64,000 bases of DNA from an uncultured bacterium (lineage in GTDB: Bacteria > Chlamydiota > Chlamydiia > Chlamydiales > JAJFMA01): contig CAYTFC010000002.1 in the NCBI GenBank assembly GCA_964436955.1, forward strand, positions 583 through 64,582, read 5' to 3'. Both the position numbers and the translations under genes were made by a program. Numbering within the stretch: position 1 is the stretch's first letter; every line of letters starts with the position of its first letter. Positions 3,121 to 44,446 of this stretch are shown one piece after another. The notes under the pieces are model-generated. The model saw only the letters and a program-made list of their open reading frames with translations. It did no database searches and was not told where the DNA came from.

Positions 3121-3132
3121 GAGCTTGTAACT

Positions 3133-4458
3133 ATGGCAGTTTTCCAGGGATCACCGCGTGAATCATGGCTGGAGTACCTCGCTAACCTCCCGCGCATGTT
3201 CATACGCTCGATCTTTCGACATAACTATCCTAATAATGATGTCGATCGCTCTGAAATCGTATTTAAGAACTTCTTTCTGCACTTCCATCCAGTCAAGTGT
3301 CACAAAAATAGTACCGATCCCTTTTACACATTAGGTCTTGGGGCTATCTCAACCAGCCTATTTTTGATACTGACTTGGACCGGTGTTGTTCTGATGTTCT
3401 TCTACATACCCACTGTGGACCGTGCTTATGACATCATGAAGGATTGGCAGGATACGACACCATTTGCGCAGATGTACCGCAACATGCATCGTTGGGCAGC
3501 GCATTTGATGGTGATGTTTGTGATGCTGCACATGTCGCGGGTCTTTTATACCGGCTCCTATAAAGGAGAACGCCGCTTTAATTGGGTGATCGGCGTCATT
3601 CTGATGGTACTGACGCTCCTGCTATCATTCACTGGATATCTTCTACCTTGGGACCAGTTAGCCTTTTGGGCTATTACGGTAGGATCCGAAATTGCAGGGT
3701 ATGCCCCCAATCTGCCTGGCTTTCAGTATAATGTGAACCGTGTCATGCTACTAGCCTCCACTAGCGTAGGTCAGGATGCTCTCATTCGCTTTTATGTGCT
3801 GCATGTGGTGGTACTGCCATTGGTGGCCGGCACCTTGATTGGTGTACACTTTTGGCGCATTCGCAAGGATGGAGGACTATCGCGCCCTCCCGACCGTGTC
3901 AGACCCGATCCATTAAGAGTCGTCCAACGATCCGATAGCAAAGAGGTATTTGCTCCGGGAGTGAAACGAACCTATGGTTTGATGGAGCTTGTACGAGGCA
4001 CCTGTCCCACCGTAGATAAGGGGCCATACAACTTTGTCTTTAGCTGGCCGAACCTTCTGCGTGCGGAGATGGTGGCCTTCTTACTTACTTTGGTGCTAAC
4101 GTTGGCGCTTTCTTTCATTGACGCGCCATTGGAGGAACCTGCTAACCCCGCCGCTCCTCCGAACCCTTCCAAAGCTCCCTGGTACTTTCTTGGGCTGCAG
4201 GAAATGGTAGCTTACAGCGCCTTCTGGGGCGGCGTTGGTATTCCTACGCTCATGGTGCTGGGTTTGATGGCAGTACCCTATCTCGACCGTAATCCTCATG
4301 GGACGGGCTATTGGTTCCATCGCAGCCGCTATTTGGCGATCTTTTTGTGGACACTCTTTATGACCAGTCAAGCTCTACTCATCGTCATTGGAACGTTTTT
4401 TAGAGGAGCTAACTGGGGATGGATTTGGCCGTGGACAGAAACTTTCTCGCGGCATTAA
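3133..4458 (+). CDS. Cytochrome b (b6 and subunit-IV-like parts in one 441-aa polypeptide)
   Basis: Polytopic membrane protein with cytochrome b signatures (RNMHRWAAHLMVMFVMLHMSRVF; LPWDQLAFWAITVG; FYVLHVVVLP). Lies directly after the Rieske gene. Confidence 0.9.
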   Translation: MAVFQGSPRESWLEYLANLPRMFIRSIFRHNYPNNDVDRSEIVFKNFFLHFHPVKCHKNSTDPFYTLGLGAISTSLFLILTWTGVVLMFFYIPTVDRAYDIMKDWQDTTPFAQMYRNMHRWAAHLMVMFVMLHMSRVFYTGSYKGERRFNWVIGVILMVLTLLLSFTGYLLPWDQLAFWAITVGSEIAGYAPNLPGFQYNVNRVMLLASTSVGQDALIRFYVLHVVVLPLVAGTLIGVHFWRIRKDGGLSRPPDRVRPDPLRVVQRSDSKEVFAPGVKRTYGLMELVRGTCPTVDKGPYNFVFSWPNLLRAEMVAFLLTLVLTLALSFIDAPLEEPANPAAPPNPSKAPWYFLGLQEMVAYSAFWGGVGIPTLMVLGLMAVPYLDRNPHGTGYWFHRSRYLAIFLWTLFMTSQALLIVIGTFFRGANWGWIWPWTETFSRH

Positions 4459-4481
4459 AGCGGTATTAAAAGGGAGAAATC

Positions 4482-7400: not shown

Positions 7401-8438
7401 TTGAATATAGCCCAAGGCGAGAGTGTTTTCATCGAAAACTGTGCTATCTGTCATGGTAAAGAAGGAGCCGGTAATGGCTTAAGAGCCGGTAGTATGACGG
7501 AATCAAAGCCTCGTATGCTTACAAATCTGGATTGGATAGCAACTCGTGATGACCTGCGCTTGCTTCAATCCATCAAATTTGGCGTTCTTGGTACCTCCAT
7601 GACTCCCTGGGGCGATTTTACAAGCACGCTGCAAAGATTGCAATTGGTCATGTACATTCGCAGCCTGAGCCGAGAGCATGCACTGCGTGAACATCTTTCG
7701 GACATCATCTATCAATCCTTCGATCGCGCCTTGGAAACTGTGCGGCAGTCTCAAATAGAAGAGGACGTTAAGTTTCAAGAACTGGATAAAGCGTACAATA
7801 CAGCAAAGTCTTTTAAGATAGATCAGGAAGCCAATCTAGCGATAAACAAAACGGCCGTACCAGCACTTGTCGATGCCTATCAAAAAGAACTGTCGCTTGG
7901 GGAACAACTTAAGAAACAAGAAACTATTGATAATGCAATCTCTGACTTAATTGCTGAAATAAAGAAGCAACGCGATATTTTTACTTCACTGGGAAGTACA
8001 GCTCTAGCATCTTTAGGTGAAAGTGATGTTTCAGACGGGATTTTAGACTTAATAGGTCTAAATGCTGTCCATTATGAGTACCATGATGGAAAGCTCACCT
8101 TGGATAATTATTCCGCTGATCCAGCCGTCATTGTTAACACCGGTAAGCAAGTACTTGCTTTGCTGGAAAAAGACATCCCCTCACTAGAAAAAGAACTGAA
8201 AGGCATGGACGCACAAGCGGCTTCCACCGAAGCACGTGAGAGAATTGCTGAACTAAACCAACGTGTGAAGGGGCTTAATCAAATTAAGGTCCTAGTACTA
8301 ACAACACTAGAGGACTCCGCACGCTCAAAACAGAGACAGGAAAGCCTTGTGGAACGCATTCATGGTCTCAAAGAAGCCTTAAGGCAAAGCGAACCGGCTA
8401 CTCAAGAAAAAGCGAAACAAAGAAATACCAATGAATGA
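4482..8438 (+). CDS. Membrane-anchored heptahaem c-type cytochrome (1318 aa) with a CcoP-like di-haem module and a coiled-coil tail
   Basis: N-terminal TM helix. Seven CxxCH motifs: CTSCH, CTVCH, CVQCH, CYACH, CAACH, CAQCH, CAICH. The last two sit in class-I cytochrome c contexts (CAQCHGDFRQGDGP...MPPWG; CAICHGKEGAGNG...MTPWG). GTG start preceded by AAAGGGAG. Confidence 0.85.
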   Translation: MRSELYQISLILLLVVSAALFGVFLARELFPQYRVFQQDYIALEEFRSSLTHEPMAPFDIGIRQIVLTQSNNGPEIVDRCTSCHVALQLSHFSPTKPAQDVNGEALLDEQGYPVSVPNESYVWKQLDERIAELKSQDKLSEAEQLESLKKAYIGGAEVDMTKALAMHPLIGKETRPFQFHPIEEYGCTVCHNGNGRALTIEKAHGPVFDGQYPTSFEGPVPQFLEIDEQNDPSFSRVFNHKPGHELLFQTTPIFVGELIQANCVQCHLSSTSQLNSVVTTVSELKGQSAQQTKDVQKAYEDEKKALATLLILRSDILKNGFGNTLKRLIDNETNYHLTQLERNAAAAQVIYLTQAVANLSESDPTGQQQAAVARIQRDIVISLGTEDLASALEKELQGKDSNSSALFDTFVKTHSQSKGQLFIKAAAVDRQQISLKHIDKAESSLSNSLGQEQVKKAAATDIDRMIKCYLQGEQLYISQACYACHRIAGFARGGVGPELTNEGFKYPWFIKQSVVWPQADLPSSTMPNYRLDHQELEALTCYMLAQKGRPNAVSQVDYNTTIKQWEEGKKKPWEAPVPPSKIHDLHYGMTVFATEGCAACHRLKGFQSNVGFAVEKDKVPTFDEMYRERNWFTSLFPEDLMGSQIVKVIEENAAELDKRIVDHVRHDSIIEEIQRDHPQIIEALYSGFRYASRAKPDSQWKERVERVLKTYIQEYGLGRLVGPRPNWSGIYRSDEWLIAHFYNPGAHVARSIMPVFPFDETKFYALTYMLDILAPLNAANVREIWDNRGFNPELAFHIYCAQCHGDFRQGDGPVAQWLYPIPKNLRNGSFLNNLTRERVAESIIHGVKGTPMPPWGEIARDKPFPIKIPVLTEEEAHQLTNWLFLSLPGGDVDEPDNMKWKYQPEDVIRELHGEGDQLHSNLSSVSHLLASNKPIAITSPSQQEVDDIFDERNYPIPGVKRKAYYIKEKYYTPLNIAQGESVFIENCAICHGKEGAGNGLRAGSMTESKPRMLTNLDWIATRDDLRLLQSIKFGVLGTSMTPWGDFTSTLQRLQLVMYIRSLSREHALREHLSDIIYQSFDRALETVRQSQIEEDVKFQELDKAYNTAKSFKIDQEANLAINKTAVPALVDAYQKELSLGEQLKKQETIDNAISDLIAEIKKQRDIFTSLGSTALASLGESDVSDGILDLIGLNAVHYEYHDGKLTLDNYSADPAVIVNTGKQVLALLEKDIPSLEKELKGMDAQAASTEARERIAELNQRVKGLNQIKVLVLTTLEDSARSKQRQESLVERIHGLKEALRQSEPATQEKAKQRNTNE

Positions 8439-9897
8439 TACAGCTACAGTCCCCTCAACGCCACAATTTGAAGATCTACCCGTCAAGCTGTTTGTGTATC
8501 CCGCCATTGTTTTTATGGTCATAGGGATGTTTTTTGGCGTCTTTATTTCCTTTAATGGAATGGTGATGCCTGATTATTGGGCTGGTGAATACATTCACTT
8601 TGGGCGCATGCGTCCGGTACATGTTGGCCATGTTCTATTCTTATGGTTGTTGCCTGCTAATTTTGGATTGATTTTCTATATTACTCAAAGATTGTGCGGT
8701 GTGACGCTATGGAGTCGCTCGCTGGGAATATGGTCTGCAGCGCTTTACTGGCTTGCGCTTGTTCCAGGAACCTATTCATTTCCTTGGGGAACCAACTTTG
8801 GGTGGGAATATGCCGAGTTTCCCATGTGGTTGGGTTGGCTTCCGGTAAAATTCATGCTCTTATTTGCTTGGATACTGATCACCATTAACATTTACATGAC
8901 CATAGCCAACCGCAAGTATGATAAGCTCTATGTTTCCCTCTGGTATATCCTAGCCACGTTACTGTGGGGAGGGATTAGCTACTTCGCAGGAAACTGGGTA
9001 ATCAACATGGTACCCCAGGGGATCTCTCGAGTGAATATGAGTTTTTTCTATGTTCATAATTTGGTGGGGTTAATTTTTACACCCATGGGCTTAGCCATTG
9101 CTTATTATTTCTTACCCAAAATGGCAAAGACGCCTATCTATAGCCATAAACTATCCCTCATTGGTTTTTGGTCCATTGCATTTGTGTATGCATGGGTAGG
9201 ATCACACCATATTATTCACGGACCCATGTCACAGTGGATTCAAACAGTAGCGATCATTTTTTCCGTTTGGCTGTTTATTCCCGTATGGTCAGCGGTTACA
9301 AACCTATTCGGTACACTTAAAGGCAATTGGCATAAGTATAATGAGAATGCGGCCATCCGATTTATCATAATGGGAACGCTTTTTTACTTGATGGTGAGTA
9401 CGCAAGGAACATTCATGGCTGTGCGTAACGTCAATGAAATCACATCCAAGACAGATTGGATCATTGGACACGCTCATATGTCGCTCTATGGTACGTTCAC
9501 CTTTTTCGCAATAGCGGGCATTTATGGGGCCTTGCCGGCCCTTTCCGGAAACCCCCTCTATTCAAAGCGCATGGCTGATTGGCATTTTACGCTAAACATG
9601 CTAGGAGCTTCCCTCATGTTCATTGCACTGCACGTTGGTGGCTTTTTCCAAGGTCTTCAATGGGCTACATGGGCTGATGGCGATAGCTACCGTGTATTTC
9701 AAAATAACCTCAGTAAGCTCCAATTTTTGGACACTATTGCCAGCATGCATTACTTTTGGCTGACACGTACAATTTCCGGTCTGTTTATTTTTGCCGGAAA
9801 CTGCATCTTTGTCGTGAATGTCTTTAATACCATTTTACTCAAGCCACGGCCTCGTCCAGTCCAGGCCCAAACCGTAGTTGTAGGAACGCTAGCATAA
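8431..9897 (+). CDS. ccoN: cbb3-type (C-family) haem-copper oxidase subunit I
   Basis: A 488-aa polytopic protein with about 12 TM helices and conserved His patches (WVGSHHIIHGPM; IGHAHMSLYG). The next gene is FixO-like. Its start overlaps the upstream stop (ATGAATGA). Confidence 0.85.
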   Translation: MNDTATVPSTPQFEDLPVKLFVYPAIVFMVIGMFFGVFISFNGMVMPDYWAGEYIHFGRMRPVHVGHVLFLWLLPANFGLIFYITQRLCGVTLWSRSLGIWSAALYWLALVPGTYSFPWGTNFGWEYAEFPMWLGWLPVKFMLLFAWILITINIYMTIANRKYDKLYVSLWYILATLLWGGISYFAGNWVINMVPQGISRVNMSFFYVHNLVGLIFTPMGLAIAYYFLPKMAKTPIYSHKLSLIGFWSIAFVYAWVGSHHIIHGPMSQWIQTVAIIFSVWLFIPVWSAVTNLFGTLKGNWHKYNENAAIRFIIMGTLFYLMVSTQGTFMAVRNVNEITSKTDWIIGHAHMSLYGTFTFFAIAGIYGALPALSGNPLYSKRMADWHFTLNMLGASLMFIALHVGGFFQGLQWATWADGDSYRVFQNNLSKLQFLDTIASMHYFWLTRTISGLFIFAGNCIFVVNVFNTILLKPRPRPVQAQTVVVGTLA

Positions 9898-9899
9898 TT

Positions 9900-11162
9900 A
9901 TGACCGATCCTCATATCACTCCAAAAATCGAAAAATCCGCTATCTACACGATGATCGGAATTGCTTTGCTATTTCTATCATCCATTTTAGCTACCGTTTT
10001 GGCTCCAAATCTCATTGACCCCAGCTGGGTGGAACCATCCAGTCACTTTCAGGTACAAATGTATGAAGTGGCTGATGCTCATCTGTACGCAGCACGTGCT
10101 CTGCCGGGATCGCCTACACTCGATTATGTGCACCATTTAAAGCAGGGATATTCCCTGATGGCGTTTCAAGAAACGGAACAACTGCGCATCCTCGCAGATC
10201 CTACCTTAGATCGTTATGTAACTCGCTTTGGTGAAAAGGATCTTAAGCTGACTACAAAAGTAATGCTGCTACGTAAACCCACCGGAGACTCCTTTGATAA
10301 AGCCGAAAAGCTTCGTGTAGAGGCCCAAAAGCTGTGGGAAGCCAAGAATCCAAATTGGAAGGATCGGGGACTAATACGCATGGATTATGGTGTGCTGGAG
10401 CTCTATGACCCAAAAATAGACGAAGCCTTTGCGCAAGCACGCACGGAGGGAACTTCAGAACACTATGTCGATAAAAATTTTACCATCTTGGATGGCCCCA
10501 AGCAAAAATATCATAACGATACAGGCGTCATATATGTTCTCAATCCCGAGGAATATCGCTTCCGTCACGTAGGCATTGGAAGCATTCAAGGGTATCGCTA
10601 CGACCCCAACGGCCAGTCTGTCAAAGATATTGCGCAATTAACTGGACCTGAATTGGGTTTTATATCTCGTAAAGATCTCATAGCTATGGGTGAGCACATC
10701 TTTGCGATAGAAGGATGCTGGTATTGTCATACAGATCAAAGCCGCACACTGATTCAAGACTGTGTACTCAATGGTGGAGCAGCCTATGCCGCCCCACCCT
10801 CATCAGGTAACGAGTATATCTTTCAGAAAATCACTTTTCCAGGCACGCGCCGTATCGGCCCAGACCTGGCTAGAGTGGGAGTTAAGCGGCCCAGTCGAGA
10901 TTGGCATAAAGGGCACTTCTGGCAGCCTCGTACGCCAAGTCCGGGAAGCATTATGCCATCCTTTAGGCATTTCTTTGATGATGACCCTCGCGGACAATCC
11001 TCTAGCCAAATTGGAATCCCAAACTATCGCTTTGAGGCCATGTACCAGTATTTGATGACCAAGGGAACGCGCATTACCGCGCCAACGCAAGCCTGGTGGT
11101 TAGGTAAGGACCCCTTGCATACGACCGAGATTATTGAAGGACTGAGAACCGTAGAGCCTTAG
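9900..11162 (+). CDS. ccoO: cbb3 oxidase monohaem subunit II (CcoO/FixO-like) with a long insertion between the TM anchor and the haem domain
   Basis: TM anchor at aa 15-35. The haem motif CWYCH appears only near aa 273. A FixO-like block follows (GPDLARVGVKRPSRDWHKGHFWQPRTPSPGSIMPSF). Confidence 0.8.
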   Translation: MTDPHITPKIEKSAIYTMIGIALLFLSSILATVLAPNLIDPSWVEPSSHFQVQMYEVADAHLYAARALPGSPTLDYVHHLKQGYSLMAFQETEQLRILADPTLDRYVTRFGEKDLKLTTKVMLLRKPTGDSFDKAEKLRVEAQKLWEAKNPNWKDRGLIRMDYGVLELYDPKIDEAFAQARTEGTSEHYVDKNFTILDGPKQKYHNDTGVIYVLNPEEYRFRHVGIGSIQGYRYDPNGQSVKDIAQLTGPELGFISRKDLIAMGEHIFAIEGCWYCHTDQSRTLIQDCVLNGGAAYAAPPSSGNEYIFQKITFPGTRRIGPDLARVGVKRPSRDWHKGHFWQPRTPSPGSIMPSFRHFFDDDPRGQSSSQIGIPNYRFEAMYQYLMTKGTRITAPTQAWWLGKDPLHTTEIIEGLRTVEP

Positions 11163-33445: not shown

Positions 33446-34681
33446 TTATTCGTTGTTGCGGAGCCAATTGTCTAGTTTTTCGCGGCTAAAATCATGGTCA
33501 TTGGACGAGCCATACCATAGATCATCGATGGTTTCGGGATTTTCTATCTGCCCCCTTACCGGTTCAGTCATGGCGGCTAAAATACTTTTTCCTATTGGAT
33601 GGTGTTCATGTCTGCCGATGACTGTGGCAATGGTGAATTTCTCAGCCTCGGCTTTTTTAGAGTTAATAAGACCTACAATCCGCTCGGAAAAAGTCCTATG
33701 CATATCTTTAGGCATCATATCATCCTCTGTTGCTCGCACAATATAGCATCGACCGTTTAAGTGTTCTAATCGATCTAACGTATTAAAGGCTGTCACTTTC
33801 GTATATCTGTCTACGGCCATCTTTTTAGCTTTATTGGGTATGCTGGCATCTTCTAACTGATCCCCCACGATCCTAGCCATATTCGTGAATGTACGTTCAA
33901 GTACCACGTCGACATTTCTAACCGTCCCTACATACGCTGCCGCCGCGCCGCCGAGCGAATATCCAATTACTTTTACATTGTTAATATTTGTACTGTGCCC
34001 TTTTTCCTGAGCTTTTTGACACATTTTATCAAAGGCAGCCTCGGAGTCTTCGTAAATGTGCTTTTCTGTGCGGCTACCCTTGCTTTTTCCGAAGCCCGAA
34101 TAGTTGAAAATCATGACGTCGTGGCCCATTTTAGTGAGAGATTGGACCATAGGAAGGACGTAGTTTTCGCAGGAAAGGTGGCTTCCACTGCAAATTAAAA
34201 TAGTTTGATTAGTTGCTGGATTAATATCTTTATTAGGAGATGTGCTATTAAAAAACATTCCCTCCAATTCTCTCTTATGTCTGCCTTTTCCGGACTCCAT
34301 TTTGAAGGTGTCACAAGTCCAGGGGAAAACTTCACTATTGCTAACACCTTTCTTAAGTGTGACGGTTTCTGGGTGTTGCAATGTTTGGCGAAGTTCCTCT
34401 TTAATCTTTTTTGCCCCACGATCGCCAATAGCACTACGCTCGGTAAGCCACTTGGTTATTTTGGATACATCACCTTTAGAGGGAAGTTGCACAGCTGTTT
34501 GCTGAATTTGGTTTTGTGCTGCATGGGTTTGATCCCCTATAATACTGTGTGCAACATTTTGCACATCCATTTTTATTTCTGGTGACACATCTTCTGAATG
34601 AACTTTCTGGGAATTGTCTAATGGTTGATCAAAGTGAGGGAGGGATGACTGAGAGTCGTAATTTTTATTATCAAAATTCAT
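33446..34681 (-). CDS. Alpha/beta hydrolase, paralogue 1 (candidate secreted effector)
   Basis: GYSLGGAAAA nucleophile elbow plus downstream Asp (ATEDDMMP) and His (GRHEHHP) candidates. ATG 34681 has a GAGGTG SD. About 80% identical to its neighbour across the catalytic core, judged by eye. Confidence 0.75.
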   Translation of the reverse strand: MNFDNKNYDSQSSLPHFDQPLDNSQKVHSEDVSPEIKMDVQNVAHSIIGDQTHAAQNQIQQTAVQLPSKGDVSKITKWLTERSAIGDRGAKKIKEELRQTLQHPETVTLKKGVSNSEVFPWTCDTFKMESGKGRHKRELEGMFFNSTSPNKDINPATNQTILICSGSHLSCENYVLPMVQSLTKMGHDVMIFNYSGFGKSKGSRTEKHIYEDSEAAFDKMCQKAQEKGHSTNINNVKVIGYSLGGAAAAYVGTVRNVDVVLERTFTNMARIVGDQLEDASIPNKAKKMAVDRYTKVTAFNTLDRLEHLNGRCYIVRATEDDMMPKDMHRTFSERIVGLINSKKAEAEKFTIATVIGRHEHHPIGKSILAAMTEPVRGQIENPETIDDLWYGSSNDHDFSREKLDNWLRNNE

Positions 34682-34832
34682 AAAACACCTCAAATTAACC
34701 TGACTTTAACTATATTATATATTAATATTAAAAATTTAGTTAATAAATAAGGTTAAGCAAGATTGTTTTTTATTTATTATGAATTGTGCGATCTAAATCA
34801 GTTGCAAAATTAAATCAACCAGATTAGACTTC

Positions 34833-36074
34833 TTATGCTGCTTGATCTTCTAGTGGCTTGTTGCGAAGCCAGTTATCTAGCTTTTCTCGAGATTCGGTAT
34901 GTGCATCGGAGAGTCCAAACCAGAGATCCTCGTCATCCTTTGGTCTCTCGGTTTTTCCGATAAGCGCCTCAGGTAAGGAGTCAAAAATAGATTGACCCAT
35001 TGGGTCGTGTGCATGTTTCGATTCGACTTCGAGCATATGGAATTGATCATCAGCACCAATATTGTGGATGCGTTGCTTAAATTCCTTGTCCGTTCCTTTG
35101 GGCATATTCGTGTCTTTAGTTCCATTAACAATCAAGCATCTGCCTGTCAGGTGTTCGAGCCGATCTATAGTGTTAAAAATATTCGATTTTTCATATTTTT
35201 TCCTAGAGACCTTCCTGAGCGCTTTTGGTAGATGGGTTCTATCCTTCATAAAAGTATTCACAACACTAGACATCTTTGTGAAGGTGCGTTCAAGCACTAC
35301 ATCCACATTTCTAGCTGTTCCCAACTGAGCTGCGGCTGCGCCTCCTAGAGAATACCCCATCACTTTTACGCGAGATTCAATATTCGGGTCAGAACTTCTT
35401 TCTCTAACTTTTTCACACATCTTATCAAATGCCGCTTGGGTATCCTCATAGATATGTTTTTCCGTGCGTGTTCCTTTACTTTTTCCGAATCCAGCGTAGT
35501 TAAAAATCATGACATCATGACCCATTTCGGTAAGAGATTGGACCATAGGGAGGACATAATTTTCACAGCTGATGTGACTTCCGCTACACAGTAGGATGGT
35601 TTGGTTCGTGGCGGGGTCGTTGAACAATTTGTCGGACGTACTGCTAAAAAACATAGCTTCCAATTCACGTTTACTTTCGCCACTGCCGGATTCTACTACC
35701 ATCGTTCTGCAAGTCCAGGGGAAGACTTTTTCGTTACTCAACCCTTCTTTGACGGGTATGTTTTCTGGGTGTTGTAAGGAAGCTCGCAAGTCCTTGTTAA
35801 TTTTTTTGGCGTTGTAATCCCCAATGGACGCAGTCTGCATAAGCCATTTGGCGGCTTTCGAGGCTCCTCCATGGTCATTATGTATTTGTAAAGTCGTATG
35901 AGGGGGGTGGTTCGGTAATTCTATTGTGCTTTTGCCTACATTCATTTGGGCGATGTGCTGAATGTGATTGTCAATTTGTTGGGGAGTGACCTGCGCAACT
36001 GGGGTGCTTTCCGGCGCTTCCTTACTATTAGATTGGTCAATAGAATGTTGCTGCAATGGAAGATTACTTTCCAT
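34833..36074 (-). CDS. Alpha/beta hydrolase, paralogue 2
   Basis: Same motifs (GYSLGGAAAA; GTKDTNMP; SKHAHDP). The N-terminal ~70 aa diverge from paralogue 1. Confidence 0.75.
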   Translation of the reverse strand: MESNLPLQQHSIDQSNSKEAPESTPVAQVTPQQIDNHIQHIAQMNVGKSTIELPNHPPHTTLQIHNDHGGASKAAKWLMQTASIGDYNAKKINKDLRASLQHPENIPVKEGLSNEKVFPWTCRTMVVESGSGESKRELEAMFFSSTSDKLFNDPATNQTILLCSGSHISCENYVLPMVQSLTEMGHDVMIFNYAGFGKSKGTRTEKHIYEDTQAAFDKMCEKVRERSSDPNIESRVKVMGYSLGGAAAAQLGTARNVDVVLERTFTKMSSVVNTFMKDRTHLPKALRKVSRKKYEKSNIFNTIDRLEHLTGRCLIVNGTKDTNMPKGTDKEFKQRIHNIGADDQFHMLEVESKHAHDPMGQSIFDSLPEALIGKTERPKDDEDLWFGLSDAHTESREKLDNWLRNKPLEDQAA

Positions 36075-36228
36075 AAATAGCCTATTTGTTGGATTTACTA
36101 TTATCTTATTATATTATAATTTTTATTTATTAATAAATATGACTTGATGAGTTACTAGCGATTGGAGTGGAAAAGAAAAAGTAAGATCGGCATTCTGAGT
36201 GCAAAAAATCTAGATAGGAGCGAAATCA

Positions 36229-38328
36229 GTGAAGCACGATTGGACCCTTGAGGAAATTCGCGAAATTCATGATTCTCCTCTTATGGAATTGGTGTTGCGA
36301 GCGAGTGATGTACACCGAAAGTACCATAAGGCGGGAGAAGTCCAATGCAGTCAGCTGATTAACGTAAAATTTGGAGGGTGCGAGGAAGATTGTTCCTATT
36401 GTGCCCAGGCAGCGCGTTACCACACAGGAGTAACCGCTCAGCCTTTTTTGACTGTTGACGAAGTGCGGAAGCAGGCGGAAGCCTGCAAAGCTCAAGGAGT
36501 TACACGCATTTGCCTGAGCGTTGCTTGGCGCCAGGTGCGTAACGGCAAGGCTTTTGACCAAATTCTTGAAATGGTCAAGGTTGTCAAAGAACTGGGGTTA
36601 GAACCTTGCTGCACTTTGGGAATGTTGCAAGAAGAGCATGTGGCGCGTCTAAAAGATGCTGGGATTTATGCCATTAATCATAATCTCGACTCTTCCTCAA
36701 ATTTTTACGACAAGATCATTAGCACACGCACCTATTCCGATCGCTTGGACACCCTTAAGCGTGTAATGGATGCCAAAGTTTCTGTGTGCTGTGGCGGAAT
36801 TATTGGCTTGGGTGAAGAGCTTGAAGATCGTTTAATGCTGCTTCAAACACTTTCTTCTTTTGACCCTCATCCTGGCTCTGTCCCGATCAACTTGCTATCG
36901 CGGGTGAAAGGAACTCCCTTAGAGGAAGGCCCAAAGGTTACGGGTTGGGAATTGCTGCGGATGGTAGCTACAGCGCGCATTTTAATGCCTAAGTCTATGG
37001 TGCGATTATCCTCGGGGCGTCTAGAACTATCCGTTGCACAACAAGCGCTTTGCTTTCTGGCGGGAGCTAATTCCGTGCATGTGGGCGATAGATTATTAGC
37101 GACACCTAATCCAGAGCATCATGTTGACTGGGATATGTTTAGAATGTTGGGACTAACCAAACAGGCAGCTTATCAAAGGGTTGAGAACACGAAACTTCAA
37201 GCTGTGCCGGTTGAAATAATGATGAAAGAGGCTCTTACGAAACGCGCTAATGAAGGAATTTTGCGTAAACTGACTTTAGCCGAAAATTGCGTAGATCTCG
37301 CTTCAAATGACTATCTTGGCTTTGCTCAATCTACCGATTTGCTAGAACGTATTGCGCAGGAAGAAGGTAGAGTGGGCGCTACAGGTTCTCGTCTGCTTAC
37401 AGGAAATACTGCTTATGCCATACAGCTTGAAGAGCAGATAGCTTCCTCTCAGCAGGCGGAAGCGGCACTTCTCTATAATTCCGGATACACAGCCAATCTC
37501 GGGTTGCTTTCTTGTATTATGGGGAAAGAGGATACGGTCATTTTAGATACTCAATCCCATGCCTCCACATGGGATGGCGCAAAGACCTCCGGAGCGCGAC
37601 TCCTAGTCTTTCGCCATAACGATCTTGAAAGCCTTGAAACTCAGTTGAAGAAGGCTCAAGGGCGTATTTTTGTTTGCGTCGAATCTCTATATTCTATGAG
37701 CGGCGATATTGCACCATTAGATAGTTTGTGCGATTTGTGTGAACGCTATAGCGCCAATCTTATTGTAGACGAAGCGCATGCCACTGGTCTTTTCGGTATG
37801 GGTGGACGCGGCATTGTCAATGCGCATCGTCTAGAAAAACGTGTCTTTGCGCGAGTGCACACCTTTAGCAAAGCGCTTGGGGCTCATGGAGCTGTTGTTT
37901 TAGGTAGCGCCGCGTTGAAAGAATACCTGCTTAATTTCTCTAGACCTCTAATTTACGCGACTGCTTTACCACCTCACGCTCTTGTCACCATTCGCTGTGC
38001 TTATGAGCGCATGCTGACTTCTGATGATGCGCGCCATCGTCTTCATAGGCTGATCGTTACCTTTAAAGAACGCGCGCAACAATCTGAATTGTCCATTCGT
38101 GTCACAGATACGCCTATTCAAACGATACAAGTTGGTGGTCAACAGGCACGGGAGCTCTCTGCAGTGTTGGCACAGGCAAAAATTGACGTGCGAGCTATCC
38201 TGCCACCAACAGTAAGAAAGGGAGAAGAGTGTTTAAGAGTATGTTTGCATGCCTTTAATACTCAACTAGACATAGATTTGCTATTTGATGCACTTGAGAA
38301 TGTTCGGATTGAGAGAGATTGCATATGA
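36229..38328 (+). CDS. bioB-bioF: Fusion protein: biotin synthase (BioB) N-terminal half plus 8-amino-7-oxononanoate synthase (BioF) C-terminal half
   Basis: Radical-SAM CEEDCSYCAQ and BioB core in aa 1-~320. Then SNDYLGF, DEAHATG and the PLP lysine HTFSKALG of BioF. No stop codon between the two halves. GTG start with an AGGAG SD. Confidence 0.9.
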   Translation: MKHDWTLEEIREIHDSPLMELVLRASDVHRKYHKAGEVQCSQLINVKFGGCEEDCSYCAQAARYHTGVTAQPFLTVDEVRKQAEACKAQGVTRICLSVAWRQVRNGKAFDQILEMVKVVKELGLEPCCTLGMLQEEHVARLKDAGIYAINHNLDSSSNFYDKIISTRTYSDRLDTLKRVMDAKVSVCCGGIIGLGEELEDRLMLLQTLSSFDPHPGSVPINLLSRVKGTPLEEGPKVTGWELLRMVATARILMPKSMVRLSSGRLELSVAQQALCFLAGANSVHVGDRLLATPNPEHHVDWDMFRMLGLTKQAAYQRVENTKLQAVPVEIMMKEALTKRANEGILRKLTLAENCVDLASNDYLGFAQSTDLLERIAQEEGRVGATGSRLLTGNTAYAIQLEEQIASSQQAEAALLYNSGYTANLGLLSCIMGKEDTVILDTQSHASTWDGAKTSGARLLVFRHNDLESLETQLKKAQGRIFVCVESLYSMSGDIAPLDSLCDLCERYSANLIVDEAHATGLFGMGGRGIVNAHRLEKRVFARVHTFSKALGAHGAVVLGSAALKEYLLNFSRPLIYATALPPHALVTIRCAYERMLTSDDARHRLHRLIVTFKERAQQSELSIRVTDTPIQTIQVGGQQARELSAVLAQAKIDVRAILPPTVRKGEECLRVCLHAFNTQLDIDLLFDALENVRIERDCI

Positions 38329-38960
38329 GCATTATAACGGTCACAGGCATCGACACAGAGGTAGGGAAGACAGTGACTTCGGCAATCCTCATGCAAGCGC
38401 TCGATGCGGACTATTGGAAGCCTGTGCAAACAGGTGCTGAGGAAGGAAGAGACACGGAAACCGTGCAAAATTTGGTCGATAGTCCACACTCACAATATTA
38501 TCCCGAGGCCTATTGCCTAAATATTCCCGCGTCTCCGCATTACTGTGCGCATGTTCAGGGCATCGATCTTTCGCATCACATTAGTCCACCCGAAACTACT
38601 AGACCATTAGTGATCGAAGGAGCCGGGGGAGCCCTTTGCCCCTTCAATCACACACATCTTATGGTGGATGTGCTGTCCCAATGGCCATCCTTATGGGTTA
38701 TTGTCTGTAAACATCGACTGGGCAGCATTAATCACTCCCTTATGACCGTTGAGGCTCTACGTAAACGCAATCTTCCTATTTTAGGCTTTGTGTTTAATGG
38801 CGAGGACAAATCCAATTCTGAACAGTACATCACAGCATACACAAAACTACCGGTTATTGGACGTATTAGCACGGAAACAACAATTGACCGCAGTATAATC
38901 ACAGGATATGCGAACTCATGGAAAGAAGCACTTGTGGCCCGATTGTCAGCGCGAATCTAG
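38325..38960 (+). CDS. bioD: Dethiobiotin synthetase
   Basis: P-loop GIDTEVGKT. ATG 38325 overlaps the bioBF stop (ATGA). The ORF-track TTG at 38319 is less likely. Confidence 0.9.
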   Translation: MSIITVTGIDTEVGKTVTSAILMQALDADYWKPVQTGAEEGRDTETVQNLVDSPHSQYYPEAYCLNIPASPHYCAHVQGIDLSHHISPPETTRPLVIEGAGGALCPFNHTHLMVDVLSQWPSLWVIVCKHRLGSINHSLMTVEALRKRNLPILGFVFNGEDKSNSEQYITAYTKLPVIGRISTETTIDRSIITGYANSWKEALVARLSARI

Positions 38961-40216
38961 CTATTGATCAACAGCATATATGGCATCCCTTCACGCAACA
39001 TGCGACGTCAGCACCGTCTTTGTGTATTGAGAGAGGAGAAGGCGTTTATCTCTATACAGACCAAGGTGAGCGCTACCTTGATGCCATAAGTTCTTGGTAT
39101 ACAAGTCTTCACGGCCATTGCCATCCTCAGATTGTAAAGAGTATCCAAGAGCAAACCGCAACGCTTGATCACATTATGTTTGCAGGCTTAACTCACCAAC
39201 CCGCGTGTGAATTGGCAAAAAAACTTCTAGATATCCTTCCAGATAATCTCAATAGAGTTTTTTATGCCGATAACGGCTCAACAGCTATCGAAGCAGCCGT
39301 AAAAATAGCTATTCAGTATTGGTATAATCAGGAGGAATCACGTCTTCAAATTGTTACCTTCCGAAATGGTTATCATGGAGATACTCTTGGATCTATGTCA
39401 GTAGCGGATCGAGGTCCTTTTTCCACGCCTTTTCAGTCGCATCTATTTGATATCACGCTAATTGATCCACCTGAAGTAGGCAAAGAGAAAGATGCCTACG
39501 TTCAATTGCAAAAAGCTATTAGAGATAAACCGACCGCCTGCTTTATTTTTGAGCCATTGCTGCAGGGAATTGCGGGCTTTCGCACCTATTCTCTTACGGG
39601 TTTGGATAAGCTTATAGGTCTTTGCCGCGAACAGGGCGTGATCACTATTGCTGACGAGGTGTTGACTGGACTTGGACGCACAGGGCCGCTTTTCTGCAGC
39701 TCTACATTGGAAAACAAGCCCGACATGATCTGTCTTGCCAAGGGGTTAACAGGAGGCTCTCTTACTCTCGCAGCCGTAGCTTGTACTGAGCACATTTTTG
39801 CAGGTTTTCTGTCGTCTGAAAGACGTAAAGCATTTCTGCACGGACACTCTTACACAGCCAATCCAATAGCCTGCGCAGCCGCCTTAGCCAACTTGCGCAT
39901 TCTTGATACTAAAGAGTGTGAAGATCAGCGTCAGTTTATTCAGAAGCAACATGAAGCCTTTCGCCTTCAATGGGGCAATCATCCTAGATTGAAAAGGTGT
40001 GAAGTGATAGGCACCATACTTGCTCTGGACTATGTCGACGATCAACATAGCTACTACAGTACTTTTCGAGATCGTCTCTTGAACTTTTTCATGGAACGTC
40101 GCATTCTTTTACGGCCCTTTGGTAACAACGTTCATGTTATTCCTCCCTACTGTATAACCAGGGAGGAGCTCAATACCATTTACCAAGCGCTTTCAGATAG
40201 TCTAGAGGAACTTTAA
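38918..40216 (+). CDS. bioA: Adenosylmethionine-8-amino-7-oxononanoate aminotransferase
   Basis: HIWHPFTQ N-terminus, ADEVLTGLGRTG, and the PLP lysine in LAKGLTGG. Overlaps bioD by 43 nt. Confidence 0.9.
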   Translation: MERSTCGPIVSANLAIDQQHIWHPFTQHATSAPSLCIERGEGVYLYTDQGERYLDAISSWYTSLHGHCHPQIVKSIQEQTATLDHIMFAGLTHQPACELAKKLLDILPDNLNRVFYADNGSTAIEAAVKIAIQYWYNQEESRLQIVTFRNGYHGDTLGSMSVADRGPFSTPFQSHLFDITLIDPPEVGKEKDAYVQLQKAIRDKPTACFIFEPLLQGIAGFRTYSLTGLDKLIGLCREQGVITIADEVLTGLGRTGPLFCSSTLENKPDMICLAKGLTGGSLTLAAVACTEHIFAGFLSSERRKAFLHGHSYTANPIACAAALANLRILDTKECEDQRQFIQKQHEAFRLQWGNHPRLKRCEVIGTILALDYVDDQHSYYSTFRDRLLNFFMERRILLRPFGNNVHVIPPYCITREELNTIYQALSDSLEEL

Positions 40217-40803
40217 TGCAAAAAACGCTCGTATCATTGCTTGCTGATCCCTTTATGCATGCGAAATGGCTCAATACCCTTTCCTATATGGAAAATGAGG
40301 GGGCCAAGCTCATGGCAGGTTGTGAGCATCCCACGCTAGTGCCTGAGCAAATGCTGAAACACGCAGCGGAAGAGTTTCGCCATGCTTACTATTTGAAGAG
40401 TCAAATCAGTAAGGTTTGGCCTGATGGAATCGCTGACTATAGCGTTTCCACGCTATTGGGAGGCTATCAGTCCTATCATTATATGCGTCGTTTAAATGCT
40501 CGTGTCAGTCGAATGATCAAACAACTTGGATATGCTGGTCTTACCCTTAGAGGGACTGCTTATGCACTAGTTTCCTATGCCATTGAAGTACGCGCCCATG
40601 TTCTTTATCCCGCATATCAAGACCTTCTGCTCGCTGAAAAATCGCGCGTGAGCGTTCGGAGCATCATTTTGGAGGAAGCAGAACATTTAGAGGAAATGAC
40701 CGCAGCAATTGAAGAACTCACTGATGGAAAGAGCTTAGCGCAGAAGGCGTGTCAAATAGAAGACGAATTGTGGCATTCCCTACAACGTGCACTGGAGGCA
40801 TAA
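40216..40803 (+). CDS. Ferritin-like di-iron carboxylate protein (function unknown), co-transcribed with bio genes
   Basis: A duplicated E...ExxH pattern: YMENEGA ... AAEEFRHAYY, and YAIEVRA ... LEEAEHLEEM. The TAATG junction overlaps the bioA stop. Confidence 0.6.
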   Translation: MQKTLVSLLADPFMHAKWLNTLSYMENEGAKLMAGCEHPTLVPEQMLKHAAEEFRHAYYLKSQISKVWPDGIADYSVSTLLGGYQSYHYMRRLNARVSRMIKQLGYAGLTLRGTAYALVSYAIEVRAHVLYPAYQDLLLAEKSRVSVRSIILEEAEHLEEMTAAIEELTDGKSLAQKACQIEDELWHSLQRALEA

Positions 40804-41229
40804 ATGGAAAGTCTCTTATCTAGTTGGTCCGTAATGGCAGAGAGCAAGCTACCAGTACCTGGCGGCTCTAAGATCTGGGCGCGAGTTGAAGAATTTGCTT
40901 CTGTCATCTTAACCGTGGCCGTGTCCATACTTGCGTTCACCATTGCTCCCATTCCCTTTTTAATAGGAACCACGGGATCTTTAGCCTGTCGCTTGATAGT
41001 GCCTCTGATTATGAGAGTATTAAAAAGATCATCGATGATTGTAAATAGCTCGGCATATTCTTTAGCTGGAAACCTTCTGGAAGCCACGTTTATTGCCGGT
41101 TCATTGGTGTGTGCACATCAATTGACGGCTTCAAAAGTAGTGCTAATGCCAATAATTATCTGCACATTATGCGGCTACTATCTACCATTGTCCGCTTATT
41201 ATGAAATTAAAGGGTTACTTTTAAAATAG
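40804..41229 (+). CDS. Small membrane protein with a bilobed hydrophobic segment (Inc-like)
   Basis: The ATG immediately follows the upstream TAA. Has a ~40-aa hydrophobic hairpin (FASVILTVAVSILAFTIAPIPFLIGTTGSLACRLIVPLIM) and a second hydrophobic region. Confidence 0.5.
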   Translation: MESLLSSWSVMAESKLPVPGGSKIWARVEEFASVILTVAVSILAFTIAPIPFLIGTTGSLACRLIVPLIMRVLKRSSMIVNSSAYSLAGNLLEATFIAGSLVCAHQLTASKVVLMPIIICTLCGYYLPLSAYYEIKGLLLK

Positions 41230-41414
41230 CATTACGTCAATTTTTGCAATAAATTGTTACGTGGCGTTTGTAAATTTAATACACAACGATCGTCTCATCA
41301 AAGAAGCTGATAAGAGTTTTGTGGTGGCCGCGACGGGTATTGAAACTGTTCTAGTTGAACAGGAACGTCTTAGGATTTACCTATGATTGTCTCTAACAAA
41401 AAATTGGATTTTGC

Positions 41415-42212
41415 ATGAAATCGCATTTTAAACTGCCTGAAAAGGCGATTATTGGCATGGTTCACATGCCAGCGTTACCCGGAACACCTTACTCTACCTT
41501 GGGTATTCGTGAGATCGTACGAGCTGCGGTTGAAGAAGCTGTAGTGCTGCAAGAATTAGGTTGTGATGCCGTGATGATTGAAAATATGCATGATCGCCCT
41601 CATCTTCTAGGTACAGCTGGTTCAGAAATCATCTCAGCCATGACTGCTGTCGGCGTGGCTGTACGTCAGAAGGTTTCTATTCCAATCGGCGTGCAAGTGT
41701 TAGTAGGAGCTAATGAGCAGTCGTTAGCAGTTGCACAGGCTTGTGAAGCTCAATTCATTCGTGCCGACGTTTTTGTGTTTGCGCATGTATCTAATACGGG
41801 TTTGACCCTTAAGGCGACTGCAGGAACGCTTTTGCGCTATCGCAAAGCTATTGGAGCAACTGATATTGCCATCTATGCGGACGTCAAAAAGAAGCATAGT
41901 AGCCACGCAATTACAGGGGATATTACTATTGCTGATGTTGCCCGTGAAGCTGAATATTGCGGAGCAGATGGAATCATCGTTACTGGCTTAGCGACAGGCT
42001 ATCCCACAAGTCCCGATGATGTAAAAAGTGTTAAAGCAGTCGTTAGCTGCCCTGTATTAGTTGGCAGTGGCGTTACGCCTGATGATATTGGAAGCCTATG
42101 GCCATTGGCCGATGGCTTTATTGTGGGTTCTTATCTCAAGAAAGATGGTAAGTGGCACCAGCCTGTGGACCCATTAAGAGTCAAAATTTTTATGTCCGCC
42201 ATACGCAATTAA
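41415..42212 (+). CDS. BtpA/SgcQ-family TIM-barrel protein
   Basis: N-terminal IGMVHMPALPGTP and overall length/pattern typical of the BtpA family. Confidence 0.75.
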   Translation: MKSHFKLPEKAIIGMVHMPALPGTPYSTLGIREIVRAAVEEAVVLQELGCDAVMIENMHDRPHLLGTAGSEIISAMTAVGVAVRQKVSIPIGVQVLVGANEQSLAVAQACEAQFIRADVFVFAHVSNTGLTLKATAGTLLRYRKAIGATDIAIYADVKKKHSSHAITGDITIADVAREAEYCGADGIIVTGLATGYPTSPDDVKSVKAVVSCPVLVGSGVTPDDIGSLWPLADGFIVGSYLKKDGKWHQPVDPLRVKIFMSAIRN

Positions 42213-44446
42213 TATGGTCGAATACCCAGGGCATCTAGCACGATGACACTGGAGCCAGTTCGATTAAATAGGAAGCGAACGCGAGTGAGGTCGTCAGGAA
42301 CGAACTTAGGATTGACCTTCATAAAATCGCGCATGCGAAAAACGAAACTTTGAAATACTATCTCTGATGCTTCTTCGTCTTCCAAGAAGTCAGCCTTCCA
42401 AATACGGCTCCCCAAAGAGGGTTGAAGACCACTATAATGGCTTAACGGAAGGCTAGCAACATTTCCAGACACATCACTAACCTCTATAGTCATATCGATT
42501 GGTTCTGCACTAGCCTGAAAGGTGGAATCCTTCTCTGGTAGCGGAGACTCCTCTCCGTCTGCCATGCAAAATACCAACGAACTGCTTTCGTCTACATCAA
42601 TACTACCGTCCACTAATTGCACTGTAAAGTTAGGAGTGCCTTCTTGAGAAGCGATGCTCCAACCTAAAAATACAGCACGTGTATCTAGACAACCATATCT
42701 TAAACAGACTTCGTGAACACGCCAAAGACTCAAATACTCACCAAATTGATGGGATCCTTTAATATCGGTACGGGTGACGTCAAGCCCACTTTCAAACGTA
42801 CTAATGTAGCGGTAGGAAGGGTCAGAGTATTGTGTGAGGTAAATGGTGGGAGGAAGCCATGGACCTCCCGATCGATGATCGCGAAACAGCTCTCGATATC
42901 CCTTGTCGCCCCTGAGGGCACTTTCCATAAATGCACTCAGATAGACTTTGGCTACTTGCCGTTGTGCCTCTGGAGCTAGTAAAGGTTTAACATTTAAGAG
43001 ATATGCTTCCAAGGGCCACTGGTCGTAACGTCCCCATTTGGTATTGAATTGGCCGTGATTAGCTCCATAAATATACACAGAGGCTTTAAAAAGATCTTGG
43101 TCCTTTTCAAATAGCACGCGTTCATAAGTAGAAGAACCTTGAAAGGCACGTACATCACTATCATAGGATCCCTGCATGACTAGATAGCTGATATTATGCA
43201 GTTGCGCATGCATCCCAGTGGGAAGGTATTGCCCATCTACTGGCGCTATGGCTGCGACCGCGCGAATGCCAAAGTTGAAGTCGAATGCGATTGTGCAGTC
43301 ATCGGGATAGTAGGGAAGGTCATTAAAAGCTGCCGCTAACGCCACTGCTTCTCCACCACGCGAATGTCCAATCAGGCCTATGCTATCCATATCTACCTTT
43401 TGGTAGAACGGATTGTTAGTTTCATTGTTCCATGCACGCCACAGATTAAGATGCTGCAGAAGCATCCAGGCGCGTGCATTATTACGCCCTATACCCTTCC
43501 AGAGAGTGTGCCAAGAGCTATTTAGGAAGTTTTCGTCTATCGACGCTACAACATATCCTCGGCTCGCAAGCAGCTCTGCCAAATAGGCGTAGCCATCCTC
43601 TGAAGGAAGCTCCATGAGGGTGTTTCCATGAACAATTAGGACGAGGGGGAATGGACCTTTTCCCTCCGGCAACCAAACACGAGCATTTAAAGGAAACTCA
43701 TCTGGTCCAAATCCCCAGTAATAGGAGCGGAAGGAACCTGCCCATCCAGTCCAATCTTTGACAAAAGGACTCGCATCTACGGTAGGAGTGATCAGGGTCA
43801 CTTGAGAGCCATAATGCACTCGGTGAAGGTCTTTCCCACTTCCATATGTAAGAGTTTTAACCTCATACGCACCGCGCAAACTGGGATTGGGCAACTCTAA
43901 GGGGACAATGGTAGCCGTAGATGCCGCGTTTACCGGCATGGCAATGTTTTGGCCATCGCTTAAAGCCCACCATCCAATGTATCCAAACCCGGCGAGACCA
44001 GCCACCAAAGCAATAGTACCTAGGAGTTGACTGAAGAGTCCACGAGGTCTCCTGGAGAGTAGACCTAGCGATGAGCCGACCAACAGCGCGGGCACCAAGA
44101 GGAAAGCAGCCAGAATGAAGGCCATTTTCGTGGTGAGACCATTAAAGGCATAGACAACGAGCAAAAGGGCGGTAACCAATGACCAGGAAAATGTAATAGG
44201 GAGAGCATAGGTTATCCCAACTATTAATAGTCCGGTGAAGGCTAGGATTGTGGCTATTACAACTCCGCCAACGGTAGCGATTGTTGCCGATAGCCATTGG
44301 GGAGCAGTAAGCACATATCCGATGCTAAATAGAATCCATATAGTCAGTGCTGTAATGAAAATGACGAAACCCGCCCATTTCCAAGCGAAGTCTATTTGAT
44401 TGCAGCGCCGCCTAACCCATTCTAGACTGTCCCGATACCATCCCAT
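42209..44446 (-). CDS. Polytopic membrane-anchored alpha/beta hydrolase (lipase / PAF-acetylhydrolase-like)
   Basis: About 6-7 N-terminal TM helices, then VLIVHGN ... GLIGHSRGGEAVALAA (GxSxG). Converges on btpA with a 4-nt TTAA stop overlap. Confidence 0.7.
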   Translation of the reverse strand: MGWYRDSLEWVRRRCNQIDFAWKWAGFVIFITALTIWILFSIGYVLTAPQWLSATIATVGGVVIATILAFTGLLIVGITYALPITFSWSLVTALLLVVYAFNGLTTKMAFILAAFLLVPALLVGSSLGLLSRRPRGLFSQLLGTIALVAGLAGFGYIGWWALSDGQNIAMPVNAASTATIVPLELPNPSLRGAYEVKTLTYGSGKDLHRVHYGSQVTLITPTVDASPFVKDWTGWAGSFRSYYWGFGPDEFPLNARVWLPEGKGPFPLVLIVHGNTLMELPSEDGYAYLAELLASRGYVVASIDENFLNSSWHTLWKGIGRNNARAWMLLQHLNLWRAWNNETNNPFYQKVDMDSIGLIGHSRGGEAVALAAAFNDLPYYPDDCTIAFDFNFGIRAVAAIAPVDGQYLPTGMHAQLHNISYLVMQGSYDSDVRAFQGSSTYERVLFEKDQDLFKASVYIYGANHGQFNTKWGRYDQWPLEAYLLNVKPLLAPEAQRQVAKVYLSAFMESALRGDKGYRELFRDHRSGGPWLPPTIYLTQYSDPSYRYISTFESGLDVTRTDIKGSHQFGEYLSLWRVHEVCLRYGCLDTRAVFLGWSIASQEGTPNFTVQLVDGSIDVDESSSLVFCMADGEESPLPEKDSTFQASAEPIDMTIEVSDVSGNVASLPLSHYSGLQPSLGSRIWKADFLEDEEASEIVFQSFVFRMRDFMKVNPKFVPDDLTRVRFLFNRTGSSVIVLDALGIRPY

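Follow-up and report, generated by a model that had tools for sequence, protein, structure and literature searches.

BioF (8-amino-7-oxononanoate synthase) is the enzyme of biotin synthesis that consumes the pimeloyl thioester, and the present work concerns a candidate source of this thioester in an uncultured environmental chlamydia. The DNA analysed, referred to below as the window, is a stretch of 64,000 nucleotides (nt) of contig CAYTFC010000002.1 (positions 583 to 64,582 of the forward strand; GenBank assembly GCA_964436955.1), in which a biotin operon is followed by a predicted homologue of bioE.

BioE was described in December 2025, in Elizabethkingia and Chryseobacterium, as a non-haem di-iron oxygenase of the ferritin-like type (PMC12704756). 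EmBioE cuts C14, C16 and C18 thioesters carried by coenzyme A (CoA) or by acyl carrier protein (ACP) into pimeloyl-CoA or pimeloyl-ACP and a Cn-7 acid, in a reaction which requires O2 and a reductant, and it complements bioC and bioH mutants of Escherichia coli (PMC12704756). A second paper, also of December 2025, showed that CpBioE of Chlamydia psittaci is monomeric, performs the same reaction on acyl-ACP only and complements E. coli bioC and bioH deletions (PMC12915131). In both papers the bond cleaved in C14-C18 acyl-ACP/CoA is C7-C8, and O2- and reductant-dependent formation of pimeloyl-ACP/CoA, together with bioC/bioH complementation, was obtained with the Em, Ci and Cp enzymes (PMC12704756, PMC12915131). 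The iron ligands are E26, E53, H56, E125, E155 and H158 in EmBioE (PMC12704756), and E41, E68, H71, E140, E170 and H173 in CpBioE (PMC12915131). Each of the six was found to be essential by mutagenesis in the two enzymes (PMC12704756, PMC12915131). Concerning regulation, Chlamydia has no BioL repressor according to the Adv Sci paper (PMC12915131), whereas the PNAS paper places a bioL-like gene upstream of bioE in C. psittaci (PMC12704756).

In the window, the open reading frame (ORF) that follows bioA encodes a protein of 195 amino acids (aa) with a duplicated E...ExxH pattern, E26...E53xxH56 and E124...E154xxH157. When 21 homologues are aligned, none departs from the six ligands (E26, E53, H56, E124, E154 and H157), which correspond one-to-one with those of CpBioE listed above. 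A search with the protein found 2047 homologues, and no model of Pfam or NCBIfam matches it. The Pfam scan took in 42 ORFs, which together account for all those of 110 aa or more in the window that are free of overlap with a longer ORF, and the NCBIfam scan covered 13 of these 42, the candidates included.

The comparison with EmBioE and CpBioE was made through peptides translated from cloning and mutagenesis primers in the supplement of the Adv Sci paper (PMC12915131) and through the orthologue of Chlamydia crocodili. The peptides of both enzymes align exactly on the ligand sites of the window protein. The Em peptides IHAKWLNT(L22A)S and YA(I124A)EVRADELYP map to residues 14-23 (8 of 10 residues matching) and 121-132 (9 of 12), respectively, and the Cp peptide EVLKHAAE(E68A)FR maps to residues 45-55. 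When the C. crocodili ORF (locus L075 of the genome scan described below) is read from MLTITIK, all 24 residues named for CpBioE fall at identical numbers. The window protein is 45% identical to this orthologue over the full length (194 aa, E 1e-57). Its identity to the other chlamydial operon members is continuous between 45 and 68%, and nothing marks off a distinct group of paralogues. It is also worth noting that Table S2 of PMC12915131 holds two primer sets labelled CpbioE, one AT-rich and one GC-rich, which encode different homologues; the GC-rich set resembles the C. crocodili protein.

The acyl pocket is conserved as well. The hydrophobic residues that line it in CpBioE are W33, L37, L40, I48, L105, V135, I139, L146, Y147, Y150 and L205 (PMC12915131). 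The equivalent positions of the window protein are W18, L22, M25, M33, M90, V119, I123, L130, Y131, Y134 and L189, of which eight of the 11 are identical and three are conservative replacements (M for L or I). The AlphaFold2 model of the protein is all-helical, with a mean confidence score (pLDDT) of 93.5. Judged by its sequence, the 195-aa protein is a member of the BioE family, and it agrees with BioE in ligands, pocket and genomic context alike.

To follow the context, genomes were scanned with each GTDB species represented by one of them. Relatives of the protein are encoded at 539 loci, of which 80 were kept. A bio gene directly adjoins the homologue in 72 of the 80 loci. The full order bioB-bioF-bioD-bioA-homologue is present in 56 of them, and the further 16 have an adjoining bio gene, many on truncated contigs. 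The loci span Parachlamydiaceae, Rhabdochlamydiaceae, Neptunochlamydia, Protochlamydia and Chlamydiaceae, and also include some metagenome-assembled genomes (MAGs) of Verrucomicrobia as well as Sphingobacterium and Chitinophaga. In Sphingobacterium the order is homologue-bioF-bioD-bioB-bioA. Divergent MocR-type genes, with GntR and aminotransferase domains, lie just upstream of the homologue in Sphingobacterium (L058, 8467-9990, minus strand) and Chitinophaga (L072, 8256-9797, minus strand). This arrangement is the published bioL/bioEFD layout, which indicates that the family recovered here is the published BioE family.

Eight of the 80 loci have no bio gene within 10 kb (L052, L053, L060, L066, L069, L071, L073 and L078). 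All belong to Aquirufa/Cytophagaceae or to unclassified Bacteroidota, with homologues at 49% identity. Except in L071, which is too short to show it, bioE is followed after 0-6 nt by a gene whose product has about 355 aa (seven of the eight loci), and in L066 this protein is a seven-bladed beta-propeller lactonase. These homologues may form a subfamily that serves another function, or may simply have another operon layout.

In the window the homologue stands at the end of a compact set of biotin genes (Table 1). BioB (biotin synthase) and BioF are fused, as both TIGR00433 (bioB, 3.9e-103) and TIGR00858 (bioF, 1.1e-98) of NCBIfam match the single 699-aa ORF. In the ORF map, the start of bioD overlaps the end of bioBF and the start of bioA overlaps the end of bioD. 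The stop codon of bioA (TAA, 40214-40216) and the start codon of the 195-aa ORF (ATG, 40216-40218) have one A in common, and a Shine-Dalgarno-like GAGGA (40205-40209) lies 6 nt 5′ of this start. At the other end, the stop codon of the 195-aa ORF (TAA, 40801-40803) directly abuts the start codon of a 141-aa ORF (ATG, 40804-40806), with a gap of 0 nt and a Shine-Dalgarno-like GGAGG (40794-40798) 5 nt 5′ of the second start. Judged by these junctions, bioA, the bioE homologue and the 141-aa gene would be translationally coupled.

Table 1. Biotin operon of the window, with the gene that follows it and the two junctions of bioE.
Feature	Position	Strand	Basis
bioB-bioF fusion gene (699 aa)	36229..38328	+	Radical_SAM + BATS + Aminotran_1_2 (Pfam)
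bioD, dethiobiotin synthase	38319..38960	+	AAA_26 2.1e-53 (Pfam); TIGR00347 bioD 6.3e-31, above cutoff (NCBIfam)
bioA, adenosylmethionine-8-amino-7-oxononanoate transaminase	38918..40216	+	TIGR00508 bioA 2.6e-148, above cutoff
bioE homologue, 195 aa, predicted ferritin-like di-iron oxygenase	40216..40803	+	Homology, ligands, context
Four-helix membrane protein (predicted), 141 aa, very small chlamydial family	40804..41229	+	HMMER relatives, AlphaFold2
bioA/bioE junction: GAGGA, 6 nt, then TAATG	40205..40218	+	Read from sequence
bioE/141-aa ORF junction: GGAGG, a 5-nt spacer that takes in the TAA stop, then ATG	40794..40806	+	Read from sequence

Within the ORFs scanned, neither Pfam nor NCBIfam revealed a BioW, a cytochrome P450 (BioI), a ketoacyl-ACP synthase III (KAS III; BioZ), a BioC-type methyltransferase or a BioH-type esterase anywhere in the 64-kb window, and the sole S-adenosylmethionine-dependent methyltransferase that it encodes is RlmD. 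The same scans found no MocR/GntR regulator (bioL) in the window, which matches the report that Chlamydia lacks BioL (PMC12915131). The region 2608-11162 is a respiratory cluster with genes for a Rieske protein and cytochrome b, for a multi-haem cytochrome c of 1318 aa, and for COX1 and FixO-like subunits. The haem-copper oxidase of this cluster is consistent with an aerobic lifestyle and fits an O2-dependent enzyme.

With a probability of roughly 0.88, the 195-aa gene would be bioE and would close the biosynthetic part of a bioBF-bioD-bioA-bioE operon, and the membrane gene that follows it would have no part in the mechanism. By analogy with the published homologues, which provide the reaction, its O2 dependence and its range of chain lengths, a long-chain acyl-ACP from fatty-acid synthesis (a C14-C18 acyl thioester) would enter the hydrophobic pocket. 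The di-iron centre, predicted to be bound by E26, E53/H56, E124 and E154/H157, would activate O2 with electrons from a donor, and a multistep oxidation would cut the C7-C8 bond. The pimeloyl-ACP (or pimeloyl-CoA) so formed would then pass to the BioF part of the BioB-BioF fusion. Such a route would explain why bioC/H, bioW/I or bioZ are not needed.

Much of this description was anticipated by the first-pass annotation of the window, which had been made by a model from the letters alone. The operon junctions that it read as TAATG and TAA-ATG are present in both the ORF map and the raw sequence, and its 195-aa protein with a duplicated E...ExxH pattern stands, strengthened by the invariance of the six residues in 21 homologues. 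Its statement that the window lacks bioC/bioH, bioW, bioI and bioZ-like genes agrees with the scans of 42 and 13 ORFs, and the co-occurrence of the di-iron gene with bio genes, which it had asked to see examined, is borne out by the 72 loci with an adjoining bio gene. Its central idea was that the di-iron enzyme supplies the pimeloyl moiety by oxidising an acyl chain, as a functional analogue of the P450 BioI. This part is supported by the homology to BioE. The other part, that this would be a new route into biotin synthesis, does not hold, because BioE was already published in December 2025, Chlamydia included (PMC12704756, PMC12915131). The window protein is, on sequence evidence, an additional BioE in an uncultured environmental chlamydia and adds nothing new on mechanism.

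Several observations weigh against the assignment of the 195-aa gene as a bioE that acts without its neighbour. The scan covered 64 kb, and pimelate genes may exist elsewhere in the genome. The best meaningful Foldseek matches of the model are weak, with TM scores of 0.55-0.60 to proteins with aldehyde-deformylating oxygenase (ADO) activity, and none reaches E <= 0.001; against the PDB all E-values exceed 0.08, and the haem-oxygenase-like TenA and AetD score similarly. In CpBioE, the residues in contact with the carrier head group are F39, K46, K47, K102, Y103 and H/D106 (PMC12915131). Only one of these six positions of ACP/CoA contact is identical in the window protein (K46, equivalent to K31), and the others are Y24, L32, Y87, H88 and R91 (changes F39Y, K47L, K102Y, Y103H and H106R). 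The carrier-contact residues also vary between Em and Cp, and the authors tie them to carrier preference (PMC12915131). Because these residues have diverged, the carrier preference, or even the substrate, of the window protein could differ. Finally, the membrane gene has been kept directly after bioE in four fairly diverged lineages (the window, L002, L003 and L084), a retention which exceeds what a random neighbour would usually show. Across L002, L003 and L084, identity to the window is 27-33% for the membrane proteins and 53-68% for the BioE proteins.

The membrane gene therefore has to be considered in its own right. The first-pass annotation had described its 141-aa product as hydrophobic, which it is, and the AlphaFold2 model (pLDDT 73) has a disordered N-terminus and four long helices (23-47, 49-74, 83-107 and 114-140). 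Neither Pfam nor NCBIfam matches it, and Foldseek returned nothing meaningful for the model. A word-indexed homology search found only the protein itself, whereas an exhaustive search with HMMER, run over 1.84 billion representative proteins, found six relatives of 135-149 aa (E 2.4e-13 to 4.6e-6). These have in common an AP.AF..G.GG motif and a C-terminal region CTL.GY..P....E. In addition, the BLAST scores of the 141-aa protein to its copies in L002 and L003 are far above those of shuffled controls. By these sequence comparisons the 141-aa ORF is a real gene, and in the window it is probably co-transcribed with the operon.

Homologues of the membrane gene directly follow bioE at 56 nt in L002, at 71 nt in L003 and at 14 nt in the marine loci L084-86, compared with 0 nt in the window. 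Loci with this gene after bioE are largely those with the BioB-BioF fusion, and the fusion loci in turn belong mostly to the clade with the small membrane gene. An uninterrupted BioB-BioF frame is found in only five related loci, that is in four of the 51 testable loci of the genome scan (L002, L003, L006 and L067) plus L084. Other homologues, in two further lineages, occur apart from biotin genes: the one in L082/83 lies beside the gene of ribosomal protein S10 and has no adjoining bio genes, and that in L088-90 lies beside the gene of a 738-aa hydrolase (L088, 1050-3266; L089, 3076-5292), with no bio genes nearby. In the window itself, a 745-aa protein encoded at 42209-44446 on the minus strand combines N-terminal membrane helices with a chlorophyllase/PETase-like hydrolase domain. 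The 738-aa hydrolase of L088-90 is 53% identical to it. The presence of a homologue of the 745-aa hydrolase, in divergent orientation beside a membrane homologue on contigs without bio genes, suggests that these two may be linked.

One alternative is that the 141-aa protein serves BioE as a clade-specific accessory, either by tethering it to the membrane near acyl chains or by supplying electrons to the di-iron site. The absence of any gap between the bioE stop and the membrane ATG, with GGAGG 5 nt upstream, would fit such a role, as would the position of the homologues directly after bioE in L002, L003 and L084-86 despite just 27-33% identity. Furthermore, the published assays were run with the chemical reductant phenazine methosulfate (PMS)/NADH rather than with a physiological donor to the di-iron site (PMC12704756, PMC12915131). 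Nevertheless, the membrane gene is absent after bioE in about 70 other loci, including those of Chlamydiaceae and Bacteroidota, where unrelated genes or none are found, and CpBioE and EmBioE function alone in E. coli and in vitro (PMC12704756, PMC12915131). The homologues in L082/83 and L088-90, which have no adjoining bio genes, also speak against an accessory role, as do the lack of a redox motif and of a fold match in the 141-aa protein. An accessory role of this kind is unlikely. Also unlikely is the more specific proposal that BioE has a dedicated helper in the membrane protein of the window, L002, L003 and L084, which would provide membrane docking or an electron link to the respiratory chain, and that the diverged carrier surface of the enzyme would reflect this other way of delivering substrate or electrons.

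It is concluded that the 141-aa protein is a clade-specific neighbour that stands outside the BioE mechanism, and that it is not a conserved partner of BioE. The suggestion of the first-pass annotation that the membrane protein forms part of the unit fails on the same ground, as the gene is missing after bioE in the roughly 70 loci mentioned above.

It is very improbable that the 195-aa protein is a BioE relative with another reaction (for example desaturation or hydroxylation) or another carrier-bound lipid as substrate, pimelate being supplied by genes at another place in the genome or by the host. The diverged carrier-binding surface (one of six residues identical to CpBioE), the eight Aquirufa/Cytophagaceae homologues with no bio gene within 10 kb and a lactonase gene after them, which show that the family is not always visibly tied to biotin, and the 64-kb portion of the genome that was examined would allow it. 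Against it, the gene closes the bioBFDA series just as its orthologue does in C. crocodili, where the protein is numbered like CpBioE, all ligands and eight of the 11 pocket residues are identical, and the 45-68% identity to chlamydial operon members is unbroken by a separate paralogue group. The assignment of the 195-aa gene as bioE is hence the one retained.

The surroundings of the operon were searched for further members and for signals. Three alpha/beta hydrolases of the window were considered as esterases of the BioH, BioG, BioK, BioJ or BioV type and were rejected, since none matches a BioH model and no BioC partner accompanies them; their matches, with the chlamydial CPn0927/CPn0928 family and a lactonase model, are only weak. 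Two of the three, paralogues of 413 and 415 aa, are encoded in tandem at 33446-34693 and 34833-36074 on the minus strand, divergent from bioBF, and in both some 150 aa of N-terminal extension precede the hydrolase domain. These upstream hydrolases were rejected as operon members, a homologue being found upstream of bioB in L003 only. On the other side, a gene for a TIM-barrel protein of the BtpA/SgcQ family (41415-42212, plus strand) starts 185 nt after the membrane gene. It was likewise rejected as an operon member, as it is near bioE in no other locus.

A scan of 35900-42300 for promoters and terminators performed no better than on shuffled sequence, and scans of the window with Rfam and for transfer RNA (tRNA) genes gave no match. 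The AT-rich sequence that separates bioBF from the upstream hydrolase gene contains a perfect 16-bp palindrome, TATTTATTAATAAATA, at 36124-36139. No similar palindrome was found upstream of bioB in the nearest relatives, L002, L003 and L084. An inverted repeat, TAAACC-N-GGTTTA, upstream of bioB in L013 is not general, as it was seen in one of 64 loci. In the marine contig L084, the same oxidase genes as those of the respiratory cluster of the window adjoin the bio operon. A groundwater metagenome yielded an identical contig of 1.3 kb, and the chlamydia is taken to be a groundwater organism.

The BioE route to pimelate, described only recently, extends beyond Weeksellaceae and Chlamydiaceae. 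As predicted from these loci, it would be the standard start of biotin synthesis in environmental chlamydiae, including Parachlamydiaceae, Rhabdochlamydiaceae, Simkania-like and unnamed lineages. MAGs and public records give bioE homologues the labels ‘hypothetical protein’, ‘bacterioferritin’ or ‘rubrerythrin’. Since the family carries such labels and is without a model in Pfam or NCBIfam, the main practical value of the assignment lies in annotation, and naming bioE correctly fills what looks like a gap when chlamydial biotin metabolism is reconstructed.

Among known chlamydial proteins, Inc proteins have paired (bilobed) hydrophobic helices, a type III secretion signal and a location in the inclusion membrane. 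The two long-helix hairpins predicted for the 141-aa protein would be compatible with this class but are not specific to it.

CpBioE is one of the closest described counterparts of the window protein. The two have the six iron ligands in common and the acyl-pocket residues are kept; in both cases bioE comes last, after bioB, bioF, bioD and bioA (for CpBioE on the evidence of locus L075 of C. crocodili), and neither has an adjoining BioL regulator. In contrast, the window protein is about 15 residues shorter at its N-terminus, and five of the six residues assigned to contact with the ACP head group differ. The window also differs in having BioB and BioF fused and a small membrane gene after bioE. 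Compared with EmBioE, the ligand numbering is near-identical (E125, E155 and H158 versus E124, E154 and H157). However, Em has a bioL (MocR) repressor and a bioEFD/bioBA layout, neither of which is found in the window, and EmBioE is a dimer which takes both CoA and ACP thioesters.

More distant likenesses concern the fold and the reaction. The cyanobacterial ADO (cADO) and other proteins with ADO activity (PDB 4kvq, 5ux1 and 8fhc) have, like BioE, a ferritin-like helical bundle, a di-iron site built from two (E, ExxH) sets and a pocket for a long acyl or alkyl chain. The authors named cADO as the closest solved relative of BioE (PMC12704756), a statement with which the ADO-type Foldseek neighbours of the window protein agree, though no match is statistically strong; sequence similarity between the window protein and cADO was undetectable in a profile search of PDB sequences, which gave bacterioferritin as its sole match, at a marginal E of 0.003. 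The reactions differ, as cADO removes C1 from an aldehyde whereas BioE cleaves in mid-chain at C7-C8. The P450 BioI of Bacillus subtilis does the same job as BioE, the oxidative C7-C8 cleavage of a long-chain acyl-ACP into a pimeloyl thioester, and this analogy was drawn by the PNAS authors (PMC12704756). The two enzymes are nonetheless unrelated, BioI being a haem-thiolate P450 and BioE a non-haem di-iron four-helix bundle.

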